A stretch of 11,648 bases of DNA from an uncultured archaeon (GTDB lineage: Archaea; Asgardarchaeota; Lokiarchaeia; Sigyniarchaeales; SOKP01), in assembly GCA_964525635.1 (NCBI GenBank), contig CAZGJX010000119.1, forward strand, positions 1 to 11,648, written 5' to 3'. Shown here in pieces: positions 93 through 11,497 of this stretch. How positions within the stretch are numbered: position 1 is the stretch's first letter; each line of letters begins with the position of its first letter. The notes beneath the pieces are model-generated. The model was given only the letters and a program-made list of their open reading frames with translations. It was not told where the DNA came from and made no database searches. The position numbers and the translations under genes are program-made.

Positions 93-770
93 ATGAGCGA
101 AAATAAAGGTAAAATAATATTAGAGAAAATGATATTTTTCTTAATCTTTTTCATTTACTATAATATTTGTTTTTTAGTATTTGTTATAGAGATGTATACA
201 ATTCTTATTTATCAAATTTATCTCATACTGTATTTCATTCTTTTATTTCTTGATACAATGCTAAGACCAATGACCGAGAAAAAAGAGAAAAATGATAAAT
301 TTTCATTAATAATTTTAATTTTATTTGTTCTGTCTCCCATTATATTGATATTAAGTTATTTTGAGAATAAAATATTTATCTCTGTATATGTTCCAATTTG
401 GAATAGTATATTTATATCTTTATTTGGAATTATTATTTATATTATAGCAGGAATTGTTTTAATAGGGAGCAGAATTCAACTTGGTCGATTCGCTACCGGA
501 TTATTAGTAATAGAAGATAATCATAAATTAATCAATACTGGAATTTATAAATTTATTCGTCACCCAATATATCTAGGAACTTTATTGGGAGTTTTAGGAT
601 TTGGATTAATATATTGTGCTATAATTCTTACTACTTTATGTCTAATCACGTATTTTTTAGTATTTAGACAACGGATGATTTATGAAGAAAAGATATTAGA
701 AAATGAATTTGGAGAAGAATACATTAAATATAAAAGCCAAACAAAAAGATTGATTCCATTTCTCTATTAA
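93..770 (+). CDS. Isoprenylcysteine carboxyl methyltransferase (ICMT/Ste14/PEMT-like) family membrane methyltransferase
   Basis: Multiple hydrophobic TM segments and the family signatures HKLINTGIYKFIRHPIYLG and EEKILENEFGEEYIKYKSQTKRLIPFLY. The substrate cannot be assigned, and the true start could be a later Met. Confidence 0.88.
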   Translation: MSENKGKIILEKMIFFLIFFIYYNICFLVFVIEMYTILIYQIYLILYFILLFLDTMLRPMTEKKEKNDKFSLIILILFVLSPIILILSYFENKIFISVYVPIWNSIFISLFGIIIYIIAGIVLIGSRIQLGRFATGLLVIEDNHKLINTGIYKFIRHPIYLGTLLGVLGFGLIYCAIILTTLCLITYFLVFRQRMIYEEKILENEFGEEYIKYKSQTKRLIPFLY

Positions 771-1254: not shown

Positions 1255-4200
1255 TTAATATTTAATTTGACATGAGTCACTATCACAAAATTGTTCCCCT
1301 ATTGCTCTATCAGAAGTTTCATCCAAATCAAGGGGTTGTATTTTAGATATCATTTCTTCATATTTTTCTTTAGTTATTTCTTCATAGGGTGCCTGTTCAT
1401 AACCATGTTCCTTAATCGGTAAAAAACTTACACTCTTTAATTTATCTTCATAACATTCAAGAACTCGTTTAACTTCAGTTGCTTCTTCTGGTTTAAAAGT
1501 AATTGTAATAGAAACTTGATTATCTGACCAATATTTTTGATAATCCGCTGCATTTTCTGCTTGTTCCCAAATGGAAACATCCTTCTTTGAACGATCAAAA
1601 TTTTTCTCATGAACAGGAAATTCGATAACATAAGAATTATGAGAATATTTATCATCCTCAATTGTATATCCTGCTTTTCTTATTGGAGTAATTAAATCGG
1701 AATTCTTAGATATTCTGATTCTCCTAATATAATATTTTGAATGAGGATAATGAATTCCTGGAGGAACTCCTGGCAACAAACTAACAGTATTATGTGATAT
1801 TACTCCATTAGCAATATATTCATTTCCATCTGGAACAGAAATATCATATGTATAATTTTCACTCTCTTTAATATTATCTACATAATCTATCCAATATTTT
1901 TTTCGTTCAAATTCAATATATCTATTCTTTAGATCTTTTGAAACATATCTTAATTTTTTTAAATCCATTAACCTAGACTGTATTATCCATCTATCTTTAA
2001 TACCAAATGCTTCAGTATTAGGAGAAAAAGGTTTTATTTTAACATTTAGTCCAACGGATCTACATAGTATTAATAATTCCCTTGCAAATTTTTCACTAAC
2101 AGTACATATAGTCCATGTTGAGAGGTGATGTATTCCACCATCTGCTCTCCACAGACCATTGATAAATGATAATATAGATTTTCTACTTGATTTTCTAATT
2201 ACTAAAGGAATTTCTAATTCATGACAATAATCTTTTAATATACCATTTTCCTCTAAATATTTTAAAAGATAAGTAGAGTTTAAATATATACTATGATCAT
2301 CATCAACTAATGTATCTATATTAAATAATTCTTTTGCTAATTTTGAGACAGATTGTACTAGAGTAGGATGTTTTCGATTAAATGAAATCCTTATTCCTTT
2401 CTTATGTACCGATCCATCTCCATAAAGTAATCCTATAAACCAAGCTAATTTAGGGGACATTTTAGTTGGTTGATTTATTTCAGACACATTTATATATGGT
2501 TTATCAACTTGAATAAGATTAGGTTCATCAATTTTATGATAATCATCTAAAATACATACTAGTTTATCTCCTTTTTGAATAATATTAACATTTTTCCATA
2601 CAATCTCTTGGATATTAAAGTTATTTAGATCTCCCTCATAAATTTTATATCTATGATTTAAAGAAGATTCTAATATGTTCCCATCAATAGTTTTTATAAT
2701 CCTAGTTTTTACTTTACCATTAACATAAAATTTATTTATACATTTCTTGGATGTAGTTTTTATATTTTCTAAGTCTTGCCATTGTTCTCCATCTTCATTT
2801 CCTAATTCACCAAGTCTAAAAACTCCACTATTAGTATTAACAAGTGTATCCTTTACGGAACATCCACTAGGTTTTACTGTAGTTAATTTAATGGATTTAG
2901 GAATACAAAGCCAATCAGAATATTGTTCATCCAATTGATTTAAATATTTGTAACCCTTATCACACCAATTCAACATATTGCGTCTTCCATGTTTTACAAA
3001 TGCTTCAACTATTCCTGTTTGGGAAATACCCATTCGCCTATTCTTTAACATTACAGCATTAGTTTCTTTCCAATGAGTATTAACTAAAGTAACAGATTTT
3101 GCATAGAGATAAGCATATTTCAATGTTTCTTCATACTCTTCATAAGAGTCATGTTTTGAAGGAAAAGTCTCTACAAGGCAGCAAAGTTCGAAGGATTCCA
3201 GTGTTTGTTCCCCGCAATTCGCTGTAAAAACCATTTCTAATTTTGGTCTTCCTGAATTTGTTTTTTTCTCACTAAGGACTATACCGTAATTATGAAATTC
3301 ATCAACAGTACCATTATATACATCTTCATATCCTATATACTCAACTGAAACAACTTTATGATTACTACATAATCCTTCGGATATTAGTTGAAAAGCCATT
3401 TCTTTACGATATGATTTCTTATGAAGTGAACGTACTGAAATCTTATTACTTAAATATCTTTTTGTAATTATATCAAGAATATATTGATATCCTTTGTAAA
3501 TACCTGCAGTTCTGAAATCATTGATGTTATTCTCATTTAGATATAATAAAAATTCTGATAAGGTAGGTACTTCATTATTATCCCATACATATTCTTCAAA
3601 TAGTTCAAAAAGTCTTTTCTTTGCGATTTCTCTTTGAGTTTTTCCTTTTTCCTTCATCGCAACTCCTGCTTTTAAAGCAGAAACTTTATTTGAACAATTT
3701 TTAGAACAGTAAGATCTTTCTCTTTCTCTATATTTTACTTGGAATTCAGTATTACATAACTCACAATGTTTCACAAGCCAAATACCTTCATTAAAAATCA
3801 CTTCGAAATCACTTGTTTCTAATAGCTTAATGTATCTTTTATACTCTCTCATCAAAGCAGGATTTTCAAAATGTTCAAAACCAGAATCAATGTTAGCTTT
3901 CTTGATTAGATTTACTAATTTCCCTCTAAATTCATTAAAATTATGAATATAACTATAATTTCTTGAATATTCAACCCAAACTGGAGTTGTTAAAGGAATT
4001 CCAGTTTTTCTAATTATTGAGAGCATTTCTTCATACAGTTGTTGATTTGTAAAGCCAGAATAACGAGGATTACTTTCCTTTGCAGTTGCTTTTGACATTC
4101 TTCTAAGATATCTTTGCTTCTCCTCTATACTCGCATGAGGATACCAATATCTCATAGGATTATTATCTCCAGAAATATCATGAAGAGAATCATGTTCATC

Positions 4201-6057
4201 TTTTAATAAAAGTTCTAAGTTAGAGAGATTATTATTTAGACTATTCCGATCTTTGTGATGAATTATATATCCTGGTTTAATTTTAGTTTTATTCAATTTT
4301 TCATAAAATAATATATGTTCAAATATGTTCTTTTTACCATTATTTACTAACCAATATACCGTTTTCTTCTTTTTGATTTCACCCATAATCTCTGACCAAG
4401 TAGTTTGCCATTTGGGAGTAATTAATAGACTATTTTTAGGTTTTAAGTTACTAACAGATTTTTGAGATCCATCTTTCATAAGAAATTTATGATTTTCAGT
4501 GCATCTAATATTACTACCATCATCAAGTTTTACTTCATATATTTTTTTATTATAACCTGTAATTCGGGGATTTCTCATCATCCTAATTGTTGTAATCCCA
4601 TCATTATTCTTACAATAGACAGGAATATCATTTCCTTCTTCTGCCAATTGTCTTATAGAAACACCATTCCTCCCATCAGCGACAGCTATTAATGTATCCC
4701 CAGTAATACAAGGATTAACCCCAGCTGCTTTCTTATCCTTATAGTCTGGTTTTTGATTCATCCGTGAAAAAGCTTTTGCATTATCAAGCCAAAAAATACC
4801 TGGTTCTCCATTAACTTTTATTTGATCTGATATAAAAGAATAATCCATTCCTTTTTTAGCGAAGATACTATTATTACTTGCCCATCGATGAGAATAAAGT
4901 TTTTCTTTATCTTGTTTACATAATACAAAATCAAAATCAGTTGGATCTCCTAAGGCAATTTCAGCGCTTCTCCTTACATTACCAGCTACTACACATTTTC
5001 CAATATGATTCATAATATCTACAATATCTACGGAAGCTATTGGTTGGTTAATTCTATTTTCTAGGATTTTTTGAATATCATCTAACATGTCTTTTAATGG
5101 CTCAGGTCCAGAGGCAATACCACCAAAACCCCTAATTGGTGCTCCGGCAGGTCGAATTTCCGAGAAATCATAAATTGGTACTTCTTTTCCCAGAAAATAA
5201 GCTTCTAACATCAGTCTAAGTGCTTCTACCCAACCTTCTCTACTATCGGAAAGAATAAAATTAAAATGTTCTTCTTGTGGTTTTTTAATTTTTATTTTTC
5301 CAGCACCTTTAGTATCAAATCCAACTCCTACACCTAACATTAAAGCATCCATAACAAATTCGAATGCTTTTGAATATTTTAGATTAATATCTTCAGTCGA
5401 AGCGAATCCACAATTATTGAGGGCCATTGAGCCATGTCTTGCTATGAATTCTGTTCCCATCATCCATAATCCCCGTCCAGGAGGACTCATTTTAAACTCC
5501 CATATTTTTTCGAACATTCGTTGCGCTGATTTTTGCGCTTTATCGTTAATCCAAGGTAAACTTAACTTAAGACAATGTTCCTTTTGAATAGAATAGCATC
5601 CTTCAACAACTCTCCTAATTGTTTCCCAAAATTCTTCTTTTCTTTTTTCCCCTTCGATAATTCGCGCATAAGTTCGTTTATATGTAATATATCCCAATGG
5701 ACCCCATTCAGGTTGTTTATGTTTAAACTTTTCAATGAATTCATCATCTAATTTAAAACTAATACTTTCTAAATTAATAGCTCTAGCAAAAAGATTTCGA
5801 TATTTATTCATACCCCTTTGAGTAAGCTCAACACATGCTAGTTCTCTTAGATGATTTGTAGTTATCTCATCTACTCCTAAACCAATAATTATTCTTAATA
5901 TATCTTCGGCTATATCTTCAGCTATATGCATATCTAATCCAGTTTCTTTATTTAAAACTGAAGCTATTTTACTCTCATCAAAAGGTTTTTTTTCTCCTTT
6001 ACTGTTTATTATATATTTTGGATAAAGATCAGATAATGAAAATGAATTATTAGGCAA
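1255..6057 (-). CDS. nrdJ: Class II adenosylcobalamin-dependent ribonucleotide reductase (monomeric RTPR type) with N-terminal ATP-cone and two inteins; 1600-aa precursor, 744 aa after splicing
   Basis: Motifs YKRTYAR, PPGRGLW, ALNNC (Cys216), GVGVGFD, DSREGW, IRPAGAPIRGFGGIASGP, VVAGNVRRSAE and NGEPG. Spliced NP|CGEQ gives the radical Cys948, with Cys959 11 residues later. Spliced TTVKPSG|TVSLL. C-terminal redox pair FCDSDSC (Cys1591/Cys1596). TTG start with GAGGAG 5 nt upstream; tandem TAA TAG stop. Confidence 0.95.
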   Translation of the reverse strand: MPNNSFSLSDLYPKYIINSKGEKKPFDESKIASVLNKETGLDMHIAEDIAEDILRIIIGLGVDEITTNHLRELACVELTQRGMNKYRNLFARAINLESISFKLDDEFIEKFKHKQPEWGPLGYITYKRTYARIIEGEKRKEEFWETIRRVVEGCYSIQKEHCLKLSLPWINDKAQKSAQRMFEKIWEFKMSPPGRGLWMMGTEFIARHGSMALNNCGFASTEDINLKYSKAFEFVMDALMLGVGVGFDTKGAGKIKIKKPQEEHFNFILSDSREGWVEALRLMLEAYFLGKEVPIYDFSEIRPAGAPIRGFGGIASGPEPLKDMLDDIQKILENRINQPIASVDIVDIMNHIGKCVVAGNVRRSAEIALGDPTDFDFVLCKQDKEKLYSHRWASNNSIFAKKGMDYSFISDQIKVNGEPGIFWLDNAKAFSRMNQKPDYKDKKAAGVNPCITGDTLIAVADGRNGVSIRQLAEEGNDIPVYCKNNDGITTIRMMRNPRITGYNKKIYEVKLDDGSNIRCTENHKFLMKDGSQKSVSNLKPKNSLLITPKWQTTWSEIMGEIKKKKTVYWLVNNGKKNIFEHILFYEKLNKTKIKPGYIIHHKDRNSLNNNLSNLELLLKDEHDSLHDISGDNNPMRYWYPHASIEEKQRYLRRMSKATAKESNPRYSGFTNQQLYEEMLSIIRKTGIPLTTPVWVEYSRNYSYIHNFNEFRGKLVNLIKKANIDSGFEHFENPALMREYKRYIKLLETSDFEVIFNEGIWLVKHCELCNTEFQVKYRERERSYCSKNCSNKVSALKAGVAMKEKGKTQREIAKKRLFELFEEYVWDNNEVPTLSEFLLYLNENNINDFRTAGIYKGYQYILDIITKRYLSNKISVRSLHKKSYRKEMAFQLISEGLCSNHKVVSVEYIGYEDVYNGTVDEFHNYGIVLSEKKTNSGRPKLEMVFTANCGEQTLESFELCCLVETFPSKHDSYEEYEETLKYAYLYAKSVTLVNTHWKETNAVMLKNRRMGISQTGIVEAFVKHGRRNMLNWCDKGYKYLNQLDEQYSDWLCIPKSIKLTTVKPSGCSVKDTLVNTNSGVFRLGELGNEDGEQWQDLENIKTTSKKCINKFYVNGKVKTRIIKTIDGNILESSLNHRYKIYEGDLNNFNIQEIVWKNVNIIQKGDKLVCILDDYHKIDEPNLIQVDKPYINVSEINQPTKMSPKLAWFIGLLYGDGSVHKKGIRISFNRKHPTLVQSVSKLAKELFNIDTLVDDDHSIYLNSTYLLKYLEENGILKDYCHELEIPLVIRKSSRKSILSFINGLWRADGGIHHLSTWTICTVSEKFARELLILCRSVGLNVKIKPFSPNTEAFGIKDRWIIQSRLMDLKKLRYVSKDLKNRYIEFERKKYWIDYVDNIKESENYTYDISVPDGNEYIANGVISHNTVSLLPGVPPGIHYPHSKYYIRRIRISKNSDLITPIRKAGYTIEDDKYSHNSYVIEFPVHEKNFDRSKKDVSIWEQAENAADYQKYWSDNQVSITITFKPEEATEVKRVLECYEDKLKSVSFLPIKEHGYEQAPYEEITKEKYEEMISKIQPLDLDETSDRAIGEQFCDSDSCQIKY
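1789..2862 (-). mobile_element. Intein 2 (aa 1066-1423, 358 aa) with LAGLIDADG homing endonuclease
   Basis: Starts CSVKDTLV after KPSG; block B ESSLNHRY; LAGLIDADG motifs LAWFIGLLYGDG and FINGLWRADG; block F TYDISV; ends VISHN followed by Thr+1. Removal restores the conserved KPSGTVSLL. Confidence 0.93.
3217..4710 (-). mobile_element. Intein 1 (aa 450-947, 498 aa) with HNH endonuclease and Cys4 zinc-finger-like region
   Basis: Starts CITGDTLIAVADG after GVNP; block B IRCTENHKFL; HNH motif EHILFYE...IIHHKDRNSLNNNLSNLEL; CELC...YCSKNC; block F VYNGTVDEFHNY; ends FTAN followed by Cys+1. Removal restores the active-site NPCGEQ. Confidence 0.92.
5788..6015 (-). other. ATP-cone allosteric domain of the RNR (approx. 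aa 15-90)
   Basis: YIINSKGEKKPFDESKIASVLNKETGLD...IAEDI...ITTNHLRELACVELTQRG follows the ATP-cone pattern (beta hairpin, FDxxKI, I(T/S)TxxIxE). Confidence 0.75.
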
Positions 6058-6486: not shown

Positions 6487-7380
6487 TTGACTATTGTAGG
6501 GGAAAATAATGATATAAAAAATAATCAAAATAATATACCTAAAGAAGAACAAAAACTGCAAGTATTTTGGTTTATATTTTCTCTTATGTCAGTTTATTTT
6601 ATCTCTTGGTTCATTCCGGGAATAGTATTCTTCACATATATTTATTATTTCTTCTATCCTTATGTATTAATTAATACTGATTTTATTGCATTATTTACTG
6701 AATTATTGCCATTTCTATCATTAATCCTTTTCCCATTGGTTATTATAGTTTGTTATATTTTACACTTATATTTTGCCGCATTAATTGTACGGTTTTGGTG
6801 GAATTTGACTCAAAAAATTTCTCCTTCTAAAGATGGGAATATTCCAAGGAATATTCGAAGTAAAGCTTCTAAATTTTATCATGTGAGATCTTTTTTAACA
6901 AAATATCCAAAAAATGCTATAACAAAAGGTTTATTCCCATGGTTATATAAACGGTTATTTAATTTTATAGGATCTGTCAAGATTGGAAATGGCACTACAA
7001 TAGAAGAACAAGTTGTAGCAGATAGAGCTGTGGATATAGGGAAAAATTGTTATATAGGCCCAAATTCCTCAGTAACAAGCCATTTAGTTGAGGGTATATT
7101 TGGAAATATCTGTTTTTTTGAGACAAAATTGGGAGATAATGTTACATTATCAGCAGATACTCATATTGGCCCCGGTACTAAATTAGAAGATGACTCTTAT
7201 GTGTTTCCATGGGGAGTTACTCAAAAATATACGAGAAATAAAGGTAATAATTATTATTTTGGGATGCCTATTCGTAAAATTTTTTCAAGAAAAATAAAAA
7301 ACTTTCTACAAGTAACTGATGAAGATTTGAAAAAAGCAAAAGAATTAGCTGATAAAAAAAAAAAGTTGAGTAAAAAATGA
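6487..7380 (+). CDS. Membrane-anchored left-handed beta-helix (hexapeptide-repeat) acyltransferase-like protein, subunit 1; retains putative catalytic His199
   Basis: Two long hydrophobic segments, then hexapeptide repeats VKIGNGTTI, VDIGKNCYIGPNSSVTSHL and TKLGDNVTLSADTHIGPGTKLEDDSYV, and the terminal YFGMPIR (GxPAR-like) motif. TTG start preceded by GAAGTGA. Confidence 0.8.
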   Translation: MTIVGENNDIKNNQNNIPKEEQKLQVFWFIFSLMSVYFISWFIPGIVFFTYIYYFFYPYVLINTDFIALFTELLPFLSLILFPLVIIVCYILHLYFAALIVRFWWNLTQKISPSKDGNIPRNIRSKASKFYHVRSFLTKYPKNAITKGLFPWLYKRLFNFIGSVKIGNGTTIEEQVVADRAVDIGKNCYIGPNSSVTSHLVEGIFGNICFFETKLGDNVTLSADTHIGPGTKLEDDSYVFPWGVTQKYTRNKGNNYYFGMPIRKIFSRKIKNFLQVTDEDLKKAKELADKKKKLSKK

Positions 7381-8267
7381 GTGAAAAAGAAATTGACGAG
7401 TTTGAACAAGAAGAAAAATATGATGAGGATGATTACACAATTGATTTTATTACTAGTAGTGCAATAAGTCGAATAAATTTAAAATTTTTAATTGTCTATA
7501 TTCCAATACTTTGGTTAAGTGGAATAATAACTCTTGTATATTGGTGGACATATCAACCACCAGAATTTATATTTGTTCATGTTGCTATCTTATTTCTATA
7601 TGTCCCTTTGCATATTATTGCAATGTTAATAATATTTACGTTAGCTTGTGTAATGTTCAGTAAATTAATCTTAGTTATCATTAATTTGATTCATAAACCA
7701 AAACAGGGAATTTTTTATGCTGAAAAGGGAGATCATGATTTTGAATTTTGGTGTTTGAGAATTGAAATAAAAAAATTAGTGATATGGTTAATGAATAATT
7801 GGCCTGTTCCATTTGCAGATATTTTTGCTTTTAGATGGTTTGGTATAGATATAGATTTTTCAAGCCATCTCCATGATTCGTGGTGTGATATTGAATTTAT
7901 AAAATTCGGTCGGCGTGTGATGGTAGGGCAGGGTGCAATTGTAATGAGCTCCATGGTTATTGGGAAATATTTAATAATAAAGGAAGTAGTATTAGATGAT
8001 TATGCTATAGTTGGAGGTCAATCTACTGTTGCGCCAGGAACATTTTTTGGAAAAGAATCAATGACAGGAGCATTTGTATTAACGGCATTTAATCAACTTC
8101 TAGATCCAGGATGGATTTACGTTGGTATTCCAGCAAGAAAATTTAAACATAATATAGATACTATAGAAAAGAGAGATAAAATAGTTAAAAAAGACATAGA
8201 TGCAGAACAAAGAATTGAAGTAGATCATGAAATTAATATAGATGAAGATAAAAAAAATTTAATTTAA
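7377..8267 (+). CDS. Membrane-anchored left-handed beta-helix acyltransferase-like protein, subunit 2
   Basis: ATGA overlap with the previous gene; two TM segments; IHKPKQGIF; repeats IKFGRRVMVGQGAIV and VVLDDYAIVGGQSTVAPGT; terminal GWIYVGIPARK. Confidence 0.82.
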   Translation: MSEKEIDEFEQEEKYDEDDYTIDFITSSAISRINLKFLIVYIPILWLSGIITLVYWWTYQPPEFIFVHVAILFLYVPLHIIAMLIIFTLACVMFSKLILVIINLIHKPKQGIFYAEKGDHDFEFWCLRIEIKKLVIWLMNNWPVPFADIFAFRWFGIDIDFSSHLHDSWCDIEFIKFGRRVMVGQGAIVMSSMVIGKYLIIKEVVLDDYAIVGGQSTVAPGTFFGKESMTGAFVLTAFNQLLDPGWIYVGIPARKFKHNIDTIEKRDKIVKKDIDAEQRIEVDHEINIDEDKKNLI

Positions 8268-8287
8268 TTTTTAAAAAGGTGTTTCAA

Positions 8288-9220
8288 ATGTCAGTACCTA
8301 CGAGTTTAAGAGTTGGCCCCTTTGTTGCCACTATTTTACCCAAGAAAAAATATATTACTTTTTATATTTTTTTGATTTGGGCAAGTCTTATTCCTATTAT
8401 ACTTCAATTTTGGTTATATTGGCATTTTTTATGGGATTATGGAGATCCTTCTGCAATACCACAAAAACCATCTAGACCATTTCATTTTTATACGTTTTTA
8501 CCAATTGCTTTGTTTTTATGGTATATTGAACTTGTTTTGATATCCCTAGTTTTTGCTAGAATTATGTTTTCAATAGTTAATGCAATACATAAACCAAAAG
8601 AAGGTGTATTTCTTAGGGATAAAAGCGATAAAGACTATAGATATTGGTGTATCCGCAATATGATTAAAAAATGGCCTTTATGGTTAGCACATAAATTTCC
8701 TTTTCCATTTCTAGATAATGTATGCTTTAAAATGTTTGGTGTAAAAACGACATTTCATAATTCTCTTTTTGAAGGATGGGTAGATACTGAATTTATAAAA
8801 TTTGGAAAAAATGTTGTTATAGGCCAAGGATCACATATTCAATCTAGTATAATTGTCGGACATTTATTGATAATAAAAAAAACAGTAATAGAAGATGATG
8901 TTAGAATAGGAACACATTCTGTAGTGATGCCAGGAACTCATATTGGAAAAAGAGCCGTTTTGGGAACTTTATCTTTAACAACTGTTGGGCAAAAATTGGA
9001 AGAAGGTTGGATCTATCAAGGAAATCCTGCAAAAAAATTTAAAATAAATAGATTTTTTGAGGATGGTTTAGAAAAAAAAATTAAATTTGTTGCTCAAAAT
9101 GAGGAGAATTTAGAAAAACTTTACCGCCAATTTTATAGAGATCACCAAGATGAACATGTTTCTTTTAGAAAAAGGTTAAAAAGAAGAAAGGAACAAAAAG
9201 AAATGAGAAAGAAAGAATAA
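8288..9220 (+). CDS. Membrane-anchored left-handed beta-helix acyltransferase-like protein, subunit 3
   Basis: Two TM segments; IHKPKEGVF; repeats IKFGKNVVIGQGSHI and TVIEDDVRIGTHSVVMPGTHIGKRAVLG; terminal GWIYQGNPAKK. Start moved from GTG 8279 to ATG 8288 because that GTG is part of an AAGGTG SD-like site 6 nt before the ATG. Confidence 0.82.
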   Translation: MSVPTSLRVGPFVATILPKKKYITFYIFLIWASLIPIILQFWLYWHFLWDYGDPSAIPQKPSRPFHFYTFLPIALFLWYIELVLISLVFARIMFSIVNAIHKPKEGVFLRDKSDKDYRYWCIRNMIKKWPLWLAHKFPFPFLDNVCFKMFGVKTTFHNSLFEGWVDTEFIKFGKNVVIGQGSHIQSSIIVGHLLIIKKTVIEDDVRIGTHSVVMPGTHIGKRAVLGTLSLTTVGQKLEEGWIYQGNPAKKFKINRFFEDGLEKKIKFVAQNEENLEKLYRQFYRDHQDEHVSFRKRLKRRKEQKEMRKKE

Positions 9221-9249: not shown

Positions 9250-9278
9250 TTTAAAAAAATCTTTTTTTTAAAAAAAAA
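9250..9278. terminator. Putative bidirectional oligo-T terminator between convergent genes
   Basis: T8 (9262-9269) is immediately followed by A9 (9270-9278), with another A7 tract just before it. This gives oligo-T on both strands in the 60-nt gap between convergent stops. Confidence 0.5.
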
Positions 9279-9280
9279 TA

Positions 9281-9811
9281 TTAAATTATACCATATGTCC
9301 CTGTAAGTGGATCCTGAAATAAGGAAATTCTTGGAGGAAAGAAGGTAAATATAATGAATAAAAATCCACATAAAATTAATCCAATGAATGAAATTATTGA
9401 AGTTTTATTTTTAAAATTAGAAAATGTGAGTATTTTATAGCTTATTAATTGCCCAACTACTACCGCTAATATAAAACTGAATATATCTAATGTTAATAGA
9501 TCTTCACCGATTATTTGAGTATAACTATAGAAAAATATAACTATTATCAAATTCATTAGAATGACTGCTACCAATTTTGCAAATAAAATATTATCCGACT
9601 CTTTATTTATGAATTTATATTGAATGACTGTAAATATTATTAAAGGCCAATATGTGAGTTCAAGATGTTCCCAAACACTCTCATTAATCGGTGCAATCAT
9701 ACCTATTGGAATCCAAGATCCTGACCATTCAAATAAAAAATGAAATGCTGATCCTAAAAAAATAATAAAAATTATTCCTATCAGTTCCCATATTAATAAT
9801 TTCTTATTCAA
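9281..9811 (-). CDS. Uncharacterised multi-pass membrane protein, DUF6512-like
   Basis: About five hydrophobic segments and a GSAFHFLFEWSG...PINESVWEHL motif that I recognise from DUF6512 (family name from recall, not searched). TTG start with GGTGA 4 nt upstream. Confidence 0.7.
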   Translation of the reverse strand: MNKKLLIWELIGIIFIIFLGSAFHFLFEWSGSWIPIGMIAPINESVWEHLELTYWPLIIFTVIQYKFINKESDNILFAKLVAVILMNLIIVIFFYSYTQIIGEDLLTLDIFSFILAVVVGQLISYKILTFSNFKNKTSIISFIGLILCGFLFIIFTFFPPRISLFQDPLTGTYGII

Positions 9812-10048: not shown

Positions 10049-11497
10049 ATGGATGTAAAGAAAATTGATAACAACATTTATGAAGTAGCTCCTACGAAAA
10101 TAGGACAATTTCAGATGAGGGTACCAGTTCATATTTATGCTAATGAATATATTCTAAATAAAATTAGATCAGACCGAACATTAGACCAGATTTGTAATGT
10201 TACAACTCTTAAGGGAATTCAAAAACATGCTATTGCATTATCAGATGCACATCAGGGATATGGTTTTTGTATTGGAGGTGTTGCTGGAACAGATGCAGAA
10301 ACAGGAATGATATCACCTGGAGGTGTTGGTTACGATATAAATTGTGGAGTTAGACTTTTAAGAACGAGTCTAAATGAAAATGATGTGAGAAAAGTATTAC
10401 CTAATTTATTAGAAACGATATATCGAAATATACCAAGTGGATTAGGATCAAAAGGAAAAATTCATTTAAATTATTCAGAATTAGATAATTTAGTTGATAA
10501 TGGACTTAATTGGGCATTAGACAAAGGATATGCTGTTGAAAGTGATTTAAAGCATTGTGAAGAAAATGGATTTTTAGCAGCGGCAGACTCGAGCTTAGTA
10601 TCTGATAAAGCAAAACAAAGAGGGATAAATCAAATTGGATCATTAGGAAGTGGAAATCATTTTCTAGAAATACAGAAAGTAGATAAAATATATAATCATG
10701 AAATAGCAAAGAAACTAGGATTTTCAGATGAGAATCAGATATCAGTAATGGTACATACAGGAAGTCGTGCTTATGGTCATCAGGTATGTACAGATTCGCT
10801 TAGAATGGTTGAAAAAGCTATGAGAAATTATGAAATAGATGTACCAGATCGAGAGTTAGCATGTGTCCCTGCGGATACTAAAGAAGCAAAGAATTATTTA
10901 TCCCAAATGGCGTGTGCTGCTAATTTTGGATTCAATAATCGTCAATTAATTACTCATTGGTTAAGAGAATGTTTTGAACAATTCTTTAAAAAAGATATTG
11001 ACGAGTTAGATTTACATTTGATATATGGAGTATGTCATAATATATTAAAAATTGAAGAACATGAAGTTAATGGAACTAAAATGAAATTAAATGTACATCG
11101 AAAAGGAGCAACAAGAGCATTTCCACCTCAACATCCAGAAATTCCTCAAGATTATAAAGATATTGGGCAACCTGCCTTAATTCCAGGTACAATGGGTTCT
11201 GCTTCTTATTTATGTGTTGGAAAACAAAAAGCCATGGATTTATCCTTTGGATCAACAGCTCACGGTGCCGGAAGAATGATGTCAAGACATAAAGCTGATA
11301 AATTATATTCTGCTAATATAGTTAAAGCTGACCTTGCGAAAAAAGGTATATTAATTAAAGCCGCAGCTTTAAAAGTTATAGCAGAGGAAGCTCCAGGTGC
11401 CTACAAAGATGTGGATCAAGTAGTACAAGTAAGTCATGATTTAGGTATTGTCGAGAAAATAATAAGATTTGTGCCTATTGGTGTTGTTAAAGGTTAA
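10049..11497 (+). CDS. rtcB: RtcB RNA 2',3'-cyclic/3'-phosphate to 5'-OH ligase (tRNA-splicing ligase), archaeal/eukaryotic type
   Basis: DAHQGYGFCIGGV, PGGVGYDINCG (Cys99), GSLGSGNHFLE, HTGSR, CHN, HRKGATRA, PGTMG, STAHGAGR (guanylylated His405), EEAPGAYKDV; ends VVKG; 482 aa, no intein. Confidence 0.97.
   Translation: MDVKKIDNNIYEVAPTKIGQFQMRVPVHIYANEYILNKIRSDRTLDQICNVTTLKGIQKHAIALSDAHQGYGFCIGGVAGTDAETGMISPGGVGYDINCGVRLLRTSLNENDVRKVLPNLLETIYRNIPSGLGSKGKIHLNYSELDNLVDNGLNWALDKGYAVESDLKHCEENGFLAAADSSLVSDKAKQRGINQIGSLGSGNHFLEIQKVDKIYNHEIAKKLGFSDENQISVMVHTGSRAYGHQVCTDSLRMVEKAMRNYEIDVPDRELACVPADTKEAKNYLSQMACAANFGFNNRQLITHWLRECFEQFFKKDIDELDLHLIYGVCHNILKIEEHEVNGTKMKLNVHRKGATRAFPPQHPEIPQDYKDIGQPALIPGTMGSASYLCVGKQKAMDLSFGSTAHGAGRMMSRHKADKLYSANIVKADLAKKGILIKAAALKVIAEEAPGAYKDVDQVVQVSHDLGIVEKIIRFVPIGVVKG

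Follow-up and report, generated by a model that had tools for sequence, protein, structure and literature searches.

Three coupled genes of a Lokiarchaeal genome most likely encode a membrane heterotrimer of beta-helix acyltransferase modules with one active site

A cluster of three coupled paralogs

We analyzed an 11,648-nt stretch of DNA from an uncultured archaeon of the class Lokiarchaeia (contig CAZGJX010000119.1, or C119; "the window" below refers to this whole stretch). The window belongs to a 4.45-Mb genome that is rated 100% complete, and it is AT-rich (G+C 22-34%). It contains three adjacent genes for related membrane proteins, which we call A, B, and C.

Gene A (6487-7380, forward strand) encodes 297 amino acids and starts with TTG, which is the first start codon downstream of the preceding stop. 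(The N-terminal 15 or so residues of A vary among its orthologs and are not conserved.) Gene B (7377-8267, forward strand; 296 amino acids) starts with an ATG that overlaps the stop codon of A in the tetranucleotide ATGA (7377-7380, forward strand), a sign of translational coupling. The stop codon of B at 8267 and a 20-nt gap precede gene C (8288-9220, forward strand; 310 amino acids from ATG). C could also start at the GTG at 8279, which would give a protein of 313 amino acids (8279-9220). ATG 8288 is the likelier start because AGGTG, which resembles a ribosome-binding site, lies 8 nt ahead of it (8275-8279, forward strand) and because the gene call in the database (P0001) has 310 amino acids. 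Downstream of the stop codon of C, a run of eight T's (9262-9269, forward strand) is a plausible archaeal terminator, and the following gene, which encodes a DUF6512 protein, converges on it. Upstream of A lies an AT-rich spacer of 430 nt and then a divergent ribonucleotide reductase gene.

In all three proteins, two transmembrane (TM) helices are followed by a conserved linker and then by hexapeptide repeats that form a left-handed beta-helix (LbH). In a hydropathy scan, each of them has hydrophobic stretches that fit two TM helices, N-terminal to the linker. The linker reads SPSKDG..FYHVR in A, HKPKQG..FWCLR in B, and HKPKEG..YWCIR in C. The turn motifs are FNFIG, FRWFG, and FKMFG, and the proteins end with GMPIRK, GIPARK, and GNPAKK, respectively, with the shared form Y.G.P..K. 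An earlier note on this DNA had described this layout, including the ATGA overlap and the 20-nt gap, and every motif that it quoted is present. A and C score 41.1 and 39.6 bits against the Pfam family Hexapep (PF00132), which is above the cut-off of 27 bits. B scores 13.8 bits, under the cut-off, yet B and C share 38% identity over 258 residues (E = 2e-59). A is more distant, with 24% identity to C (E = 5e-13) and 21% to B. Overall, A, B, and C are coupled paralogs with a common layout. This pattern is far beyond chance, because every genome that was sampled from the family has the same three types.

Relationship to the C-terminal module of Pls and PosA

The earlier note proposed kinship with the C-terminal module of Pls and PosA, which are bacterial nonribosomal peptide synthetases of the poly-lysine synthetase type (NRPSs; NCBIfam family TIGR02353). 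TIGR02353 is the best NCBIfam match of both B and C. The scores are 51.3 bits for C, 23.9 bits for B, and 14.8 bits for A, and none reaches the curated cut-off of 423.1 bits. Because these scores are far under the cut-off, and because TIGR02353 also gives weak matches in 14 of 14 control genomes, the scores alone prove little.

We also scored a 17-row profile of the Lokiarchaeal family against 1.84 billion representative proteins. The profile matches 13684 proteins at E ≤ 0.001, including 164 at E ≤ 1e-30. Among them are true Pls/PosA NRPSs, each with exactly three matched stretches that cover most of the module (E = 1e-32 to 5e-40). When five of the three-stretch proteins were checked against NCBIfam, four scored 460-615 bits for TIGR02353 and the fifth (P0240) scored 418 bits, just below the cut-off. 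TIGR02353 is the top family for P0253 (615 bits), P0221 (471 bits), P0259 (460 bits), and P0240; all four of these carry an adenylation or AMP-binding domain, and a PP-binding domain was detected in P0253 and P0259. For P0237, a check against Pfam alone found the domains AMP-binding, Condensation, and PP-binding.

The AlphaFold2 model of C (pLDDT 88.9, pTM 0.80) has two long helices (TM1 and TM2), a short strand, two helices, and the LbH, which is the fold of a Pls module. The AlphaFold and RoseTTAFold models of PosA by Patil et al. have the same layout, and three such units make up one pseudo-threefold domain (PMC10522769). Compared to ESM Atlas clusters of Pls/PosA or PP-binding proteins, the model of C has TM-scores of 0.80-0.83 over 219-229 of 243 residues. 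Searches of the PDB by single sequence or by profile found no solved structure of the Pls C-terminal module, and their matches cover only the LbH part. Judging from the profile and the predicted fold, the homology of these modules to the C-terminal repeats of Pls/PosA is real and extends across the whole module, as the earlier note had proposed.

A, B, and C are not members of the Pls family itself: their scores are far under the family cut-off and they belong to a separate clade (see below). Also, a Pls has three tandem modules of two TM helices and an LbH in one polypeptide, while in the window, each module has a gene of its own. (Elsewhere in Asgard archaea, related loci encode fusions of two modules and, in the case of P0128, one of three.) The three modules of Pls/PosA (C1, C2, and C3) resemble the Asgard modules in having two TM helices, a short strand, two helices, and a five-turn LbH, in forming assemblies of three modules, and in that a single module keeps a histidine at the position of the acyltransferase base. 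They differ in that Pls/PosA is one chain and the Asgard version is three genes, with no adenylation or carrier domain in the locus or in the genome. The place of the histidine differs as well: it is in module 3 of Pls, but in the first gene of the Asgard A-B-C clusters and in the middle module of C-A-B fusions.

Pls-like modules also turned up in eukaryotic data. One is in a transcriptome protein from Goniomonas (in the cluster of P0233), and a Pls-like cluster from the ESM Atlas whose commonest phylum is Rotifera carries PP-binding and Hexapep domains. These could be due to contamination or to gene transfer.

Sets of modules across genomes

We compared the genome that contains the window to five other genomes from its family, including a closed one, and fetched every module. 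The genome with the window has 12 modules, which make up four sets: A-B-C in the window, a C-A fusion followed by B at each of two loci, and an X-Y doublet together with a lone A. (X and Y are two further types of module; the C-A fusions have 536-555 amino acids.) In three of the genomes, the count is 4 A, 3 B, 3 C, 1 X, and 1 Y, or four sets, and across the six genomes there are 4-6 sets per genome.

The order of the types is also conserved. The loci of the six genomes have the order A-B-C or C-A-B, or else are X-Y doublets or lone A genes, and the mirror order was never seen. The fusions are C-A or A-B, and P0128 combines all three types as C-A-B. Conservation of the triplet and of its order in archaeal genomes, which the earlier note had raised as a question, thus extends through these six genomes of the family.

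In two trees of the modules, type A forms a clade (support 100 and 97), as do B (99 and 98), X, and Y, and C is a grade around B. Within each type, the subclades track the sets, which suggests that whole sets were duplicated.

In the closed genome (G041; CP070831.1), sets are breaking up and decaying. A cluster with two A-B fusions ends in a C fragment of 200 amino acids (L040:4654-5253), and this fragment is nearly identical to an intact, solitary C gene about 1 Mb away. At another locus (L037:538-1359), a B gene has internal stop codons and there is no A.

A putative catalytic histidine in one of the three types

LbH acetyltransferases offer a guide to the active site. In maltose acetyltransferase (MAT) and in galactoside acetyltransferase (LacA), the active sites lie at the interfaces of the trimer, and the donor is a coenzyme A (CoA) thioester. 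His115 is the catalytic base of LacA from E. coli. His199 of A (codon at 7081-7083, forward strand) aligns with this residue: HMMER aligned VTSH in A to VTGH in LacA (PDB:1kqa). Among the three proteins of the window, only A has a histidine at this position, and B has Ser-Ser where A has Ser-His. A fold search of the PDB matched only the LbH part of C, and MAT and LacA were among the matches with the best coverage (Foldseek E = 4e-7 for PDB:3igj). So MAT and LacA share the LbH fold and the position of the histidine with the Asgard modules, but they are soluble homotrimers with three equal sites, and they lack the TM hairpin and the linker helices.

Across the family, the histidine is present in 26 of 28 A modules and in all 6 X modules, and it is absent from all 24 B, 21 C, and 6 Y modules. 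Other three-module proteins also have it in mainly one place. In Pls NRPSs, it is found in module 3 (8/8), once in module 1 (1/8), and never in module 2 (0/8); in stand-alone Pls-like proteins, module 3 has it (7/7); and in a clade of triple-fused bacterial proteins that we call the Elusimicrobiota type, it is in module 2 (5/5). Finally, the scattered single-gene relatives in other Asgard families all have it (15/15). From these alignments, A is presumably the catalytic subunit and B is presumably a non-catalytic partner, while the single-gene Asgard relatives look like ordinary homotrimers. The histidine was lost only in proteins that are always accompanied by a partner with the histidine, as a heterotrimer with one working interface would predict.

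There is a precedent for such an arrangement. The gamma-carbonic anhydrases (gamma-CAs) of plant complex I form a solved LbH heterotrimer with one complete active site (PMC8290278).

Assembly into a heterotrimer

We then considered how A, B, and C assemble. P0128, the C-A-B triple fusion, is a Promethearchaeota protein of 797 amino acids. Its model, which was built from an alignment of fusions only, has a pTM of 0.76, and only the N-terminal 17 residues and the linkers between the modules have low confidence. From this model, the three modules seem to pack together as a single body.

We also predicted the complex of B and C with A as the scored partner. The ipSAE was 0.51, versus 0.02 for the best control, with at least 85% agreement of contacts across the runs and a partner pLDDT of at least 65. 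We rate this as weak support: of 80 solved complexes, 58 reach the ipSAE mark, as do 2 of 110 mismatched pairs, but just 7 of the 80 solved complexes, along with both of those mismatched pairs, reach it with an ipSAE of 0.60 or less. Also, the pass may reflect mere likeness to LbH trimers, which are common in the PDB.

If A, B, and C were instead three separate homotrimeric membrane acyltransferases, with different substrates and sharing no more than an operon, then they would resemble the solved LbH enzymes, which are typically homotrimers, and the distant Asgard relatives, which are scattered single genes. The weakness of the heterotrimer prediction would also fit. But separate homotrimers would not explain why B and C have lost the histidine that every single-gene relative retains. 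They also fit poorly with the natural C-A, A-B, and C-A-B fusions, with the recurrence of the types in sets with a fixed cyclic order, and with the translational coupling of A and B. We consider separate homotrimers to be quite improbable. The earlier note had named scattered, variable numbers of paralogs in the relatives as a sign against a heterotrimer; this pattern is confined to more distant Asgard families, whose single genes all have the histidine.

Because of the natural fusions, the equal sets of types, the fixed cyclic order, the restriction of the catalytic histidine to one type, and the pTM of P0128, we think that A, B, and C most likely form one membrane heterotrimer, as suggested in the earlier note.

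The acyl donor

LbH enzymes use thioesters of CoA or of carrier proteins. The earlier note reported that the window has no gene for an adenylation domain or a carrier protein. This is correct, and it extends to the complete genome, in which PF00550 (PP-binding) has no match and the best score for NRPS adenylation (TIGR01733) is 86 bits, versus a cut-off of 317; the genome has only generic AMP-binding enzymes. Because no carrier protein is encoded, acyl-CoA is the default donor. From these searches, the donor is probably acyl-CoA, and an aminoacyl-carrier donor as in Pls is unlikely.

The distribution of charged residues bears on where the donor would be met. The loop that connects the TM helices has 0-0.8 lysines and arginines, and the segment right after TM2 has 5-6.5. 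By the positive-inside rule, we infer that the LbH domains are cytoplasmic, where acyl-CoA is available.

Gene context tells us little about the donor or the acceptor, and the links that we saw next to other sets are weak ones. An ADP-forming acyl-CoA synthetase gene (CoA_binding and Succ_CoA_lig domains) converges on the lone A in two genomes, and in a different Asgard family, the same type of synthetase converges on a single-gene relative (L012:1396-2919, L061:4763-6259, and L065:5340-6791, reverse strand). This gene is absent beside the lone A of G030. A gene for a calcineurin-like phosphoesterase of about 530 amino acids adjoins the X-Y doublet in three genomes (L011:4681-6279, reverse strand; L062:3365-4960, reverse strand; L064:2860-4446, forward strand). 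In the genome with the window, it overlaps Y by 11 nt; in G030, it is on the opposite strand.

Bacterial relatives and a possible polymerase

The Elusimicrobiota-type proteins (P0176, P0182, P0198, P0238, and P0273) also have three 2TM-LbH modules without adenylation or thiolation domains. As in the Asgard C-A-B fusions, module 2 is the one with the histidine. Unlike the Asgard sets, they are single bacterial chains (650-960 amino acids). They are the nearest outside clade to the Lokiarchaeal modules in one tree (support 96); in the other tree, their position is not resolved. Their loci (L043, L044, and L045) contain an SDR gene, which is fused to the modules in P0198. Two of the three loci have a GT1 glycosyltransferase, one has an AMP-binding enzyme, and another has a GMC oxidoreductase and dTDP-sugar genes. 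The Asgard sets have no such neighbors. The bacterial neighbors hint that the relatives without carriers acylate glycolipids or sugars.

Could A-B-C be a true Pls-type polymerase that has been split? It would then receive amino acids or other activated monomers in trans and link them, one after another, by amide or isopeptide bonds into a polymer that is extruded via the six-helix bundle. Its homology to the polymerization domain of Pls/PosA, with the same predicted fold, and the presence of the histidine in a single module or subunit are as this would require, and different polymers might need several sets per genome. On the other hand, a complete genome without PP-binding or NRPS-type adenylation domains is hard to reconcile with it, and so are scores of 15-51 bits for TIGR02353, versus the cut-off of 423. 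Furthermore, the Asgard modules are in their own clade, apart from the Pls modules, and the bacterial clade that is nearest to them in one of two trees adjoins sugar-nucleotide, GT1, and SDR genes, not genes for amino-acid activation. Overall, a split polymerase seems unlikely to us.

Proposed mechanism

We think that A, B, and C probably form a membrane heterotrimer with one active site, which would transfer an acyl group, probably from acyl-CoA, to an acceptor at or in the membrane. The three proteins would assemble 1:1:1, with the six TM helices (two per subunit) in a bundle. The three LbHs would lie on the cytoplasmic face, packed about a pseudo-threefold axis, an arrangement that the AlphaFold model of PosA shows for the polymerization domain. 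A alone would supply the general base (His199), so that the complex would have a single active site, at an interface between A and a neighboring subunit. B and C, which are conserved, would complete the trimer without taking part in catalysis, and they probably shape the binding sites. The acyl group would pass from a thioester donor (most likely acyl-CoA) to this acceptor, which would receive it on a hydroxyl or amino group. As there are four sets in the genome, each set probably has its own substrate.

Several observations count against this proposal. First, we did not find a conserved partner gene of the triplets: their neighbors are unrelated housekeeping genes (ribonucleotide reductase, RtcB, SAM synthetase, TBP, and others). 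Second, in the genomes other than the three with four sets, there are extra sets with two A-B fusions per C, which departs from a 1:1:1 gene count. Third, the alignment of A with LacA is weak overall (E = 0.003). Fourth, glutamine replaces the histidine in the A protein of another set (that of contig C4) and in its ortholog from G019; this type of set is either inactive or works differently. Fifth, the set with X-Y and a lone A has two modules with the histidine, so a single site is not universal. Finally, B and C are highly conserved and have their own invariant histidine in the HKPKEG linker, so they may do more than scaffold.

We also considered non-catalytic or differently catalytic assemblies of membrane LbHs, such as a gamma-CA-like module or a structural or regulatory module. 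The top PDB sequence matches of C are solved gamma-CA chains (E = 1e-6), and the gamma-CA domain of complex I is itself a membrane-attached heterotrimer (PMC8290278). The heterotrimer in the mitochondrial complex I of plants and algae is like our proposal in that it consists of membrane-attached LbH paralogs with a complete site at only one interface (PMC8290278). However, its chemistry is that of a zinc site, it belongs to complex I, and its anchoring differs, so this is an analogy only. Scores for NF050158 (gamma-class carbonic anhydrase) are 34.9 bits for C and 17.3 bits for B, versus a cut-off of 250, and the consensus sequences of the types lack the conserved metal site of three histidines. 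Instead, A conserves a histidine at the position of the acyltransferase base, and the solved chains that are nearest by fold are maltose and galactoside acetyltransferases. We therefore rejected an identity as gamma-carbonic anhydrases, as the likeness is a weak one of LbHs and there is no metal triad, and we regard this whole group of explanations as very improbable.

The earlier note had also offered kinship to YvoF as an alternative. Scores for NF058585, the profile of this heptaprenylglyceryl phosphate O-acetyltransferase, are 27.2 bits for A, 16.2 bits for B, and 33.8 bits for C, versus a cut-off of 300, and this profile of 172 positions is matched in the LbH part only. We rejected this candidate as well, since the likeness is that of LbHs in general.

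Origin and spread

In both trees, all modules of the Lokiarchaeal family form one clade (support 100 and 98). Apart from it are the clades of the Asgard single genes (96), of Pls (96 and 99), and of the Elusimicrobiota-type proteins (98 and 99). In other words, the modules cluster by lineage rather than by position. The three-part design therefore seems to have had a separate origin in each lineage, and the fusions in Asgard archaea are derived within their clade. A caveat is that concerted evolution or long-branch effects could mislead the trees. One-to-one orthology of A, B, and C with C1, C2, and C3 of Pls was rejected for the same reason. Judging by the trees, the earlier note's idea of a split Pls module fits how the system is built but not its history.

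Type A was found in each of the 49 genomes sampled from the family and in all 4 from a sister family (at about 30% identity). It is weakly present in 2 of 2 genomes of another family, and we did not find it in 5 genomes from two further families of the class. Of the three subunits, C is conserved best, and the 119 best relatives listed for it, from many Asgard MAGs, have 57-76% identity. The sources label these relatives as Lokiarchaeota, Promethearchaeota, Thor-, Odin-, Hermod-, or Hodarchaeota.

A broader and more doubtful idea is that membrane LbH machines with three parts and a single site arose independently at least three times: in the Pls-type NRPSs, in Elusimicrobiota-type bacteria, and in Lokiarchaeia. 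The ancestors would have been single genes with the histidine, and presumably homotrimers. The Lokiarchaeal sets would be independent of carriers and would build or decorate an envelope polymer or lipid, with the six-helix bundle passing the acceptor or the product across the membrane.

Flanking genes

The window also encodes a membrane methyltransferase of the PEMT/ICMT family (93-770, forward strand), the DUF6512 membrane protein (9281-9811, reverse strand), and the RNA ligase RtcB (10049-11497, forward strand). A weak match to the PEMT family also lies about 6 kb from the C ortholog in CP070831.1, which may be old synteny. The ribonucleotide reductase-like open reading frame (1255-6057, reverse strand; 1600 amino acids) has two apparent inteins. 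One of them has an HNH-type nuclease region and a cluster of four cysteines, and the other has LAGLIDADG-like motifs.

Discussion

A, B, and C belong to a real, conserved, and multi-copy system, which is most likely a heterotrimer that does not depend on carrier proteins and has one active site. We found no paper on this Asgard system or on TIGR02353 in the literature that we searched. To our knowledge, the polymerizing end of Pls/PosA has no solved structure and no known catalytic residues. The Asgard version is the same machine cut into three small genes, with one subunit marked as the likely catalytic one. Its single-gene and presumably homotrimeric relatives exist alongside it, which makes this a tractable system for learning how pseudo-trimers work. 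In addition, it offers a clear example of an enzyme that turned into one catalytic subunit and two non-catalytic partners. Finally, the presence of these modules in all sampled genomes of the family, with 4-6 sets per genome, points to an unstudied membrane or envelope chemistry of the Asgard archaea.

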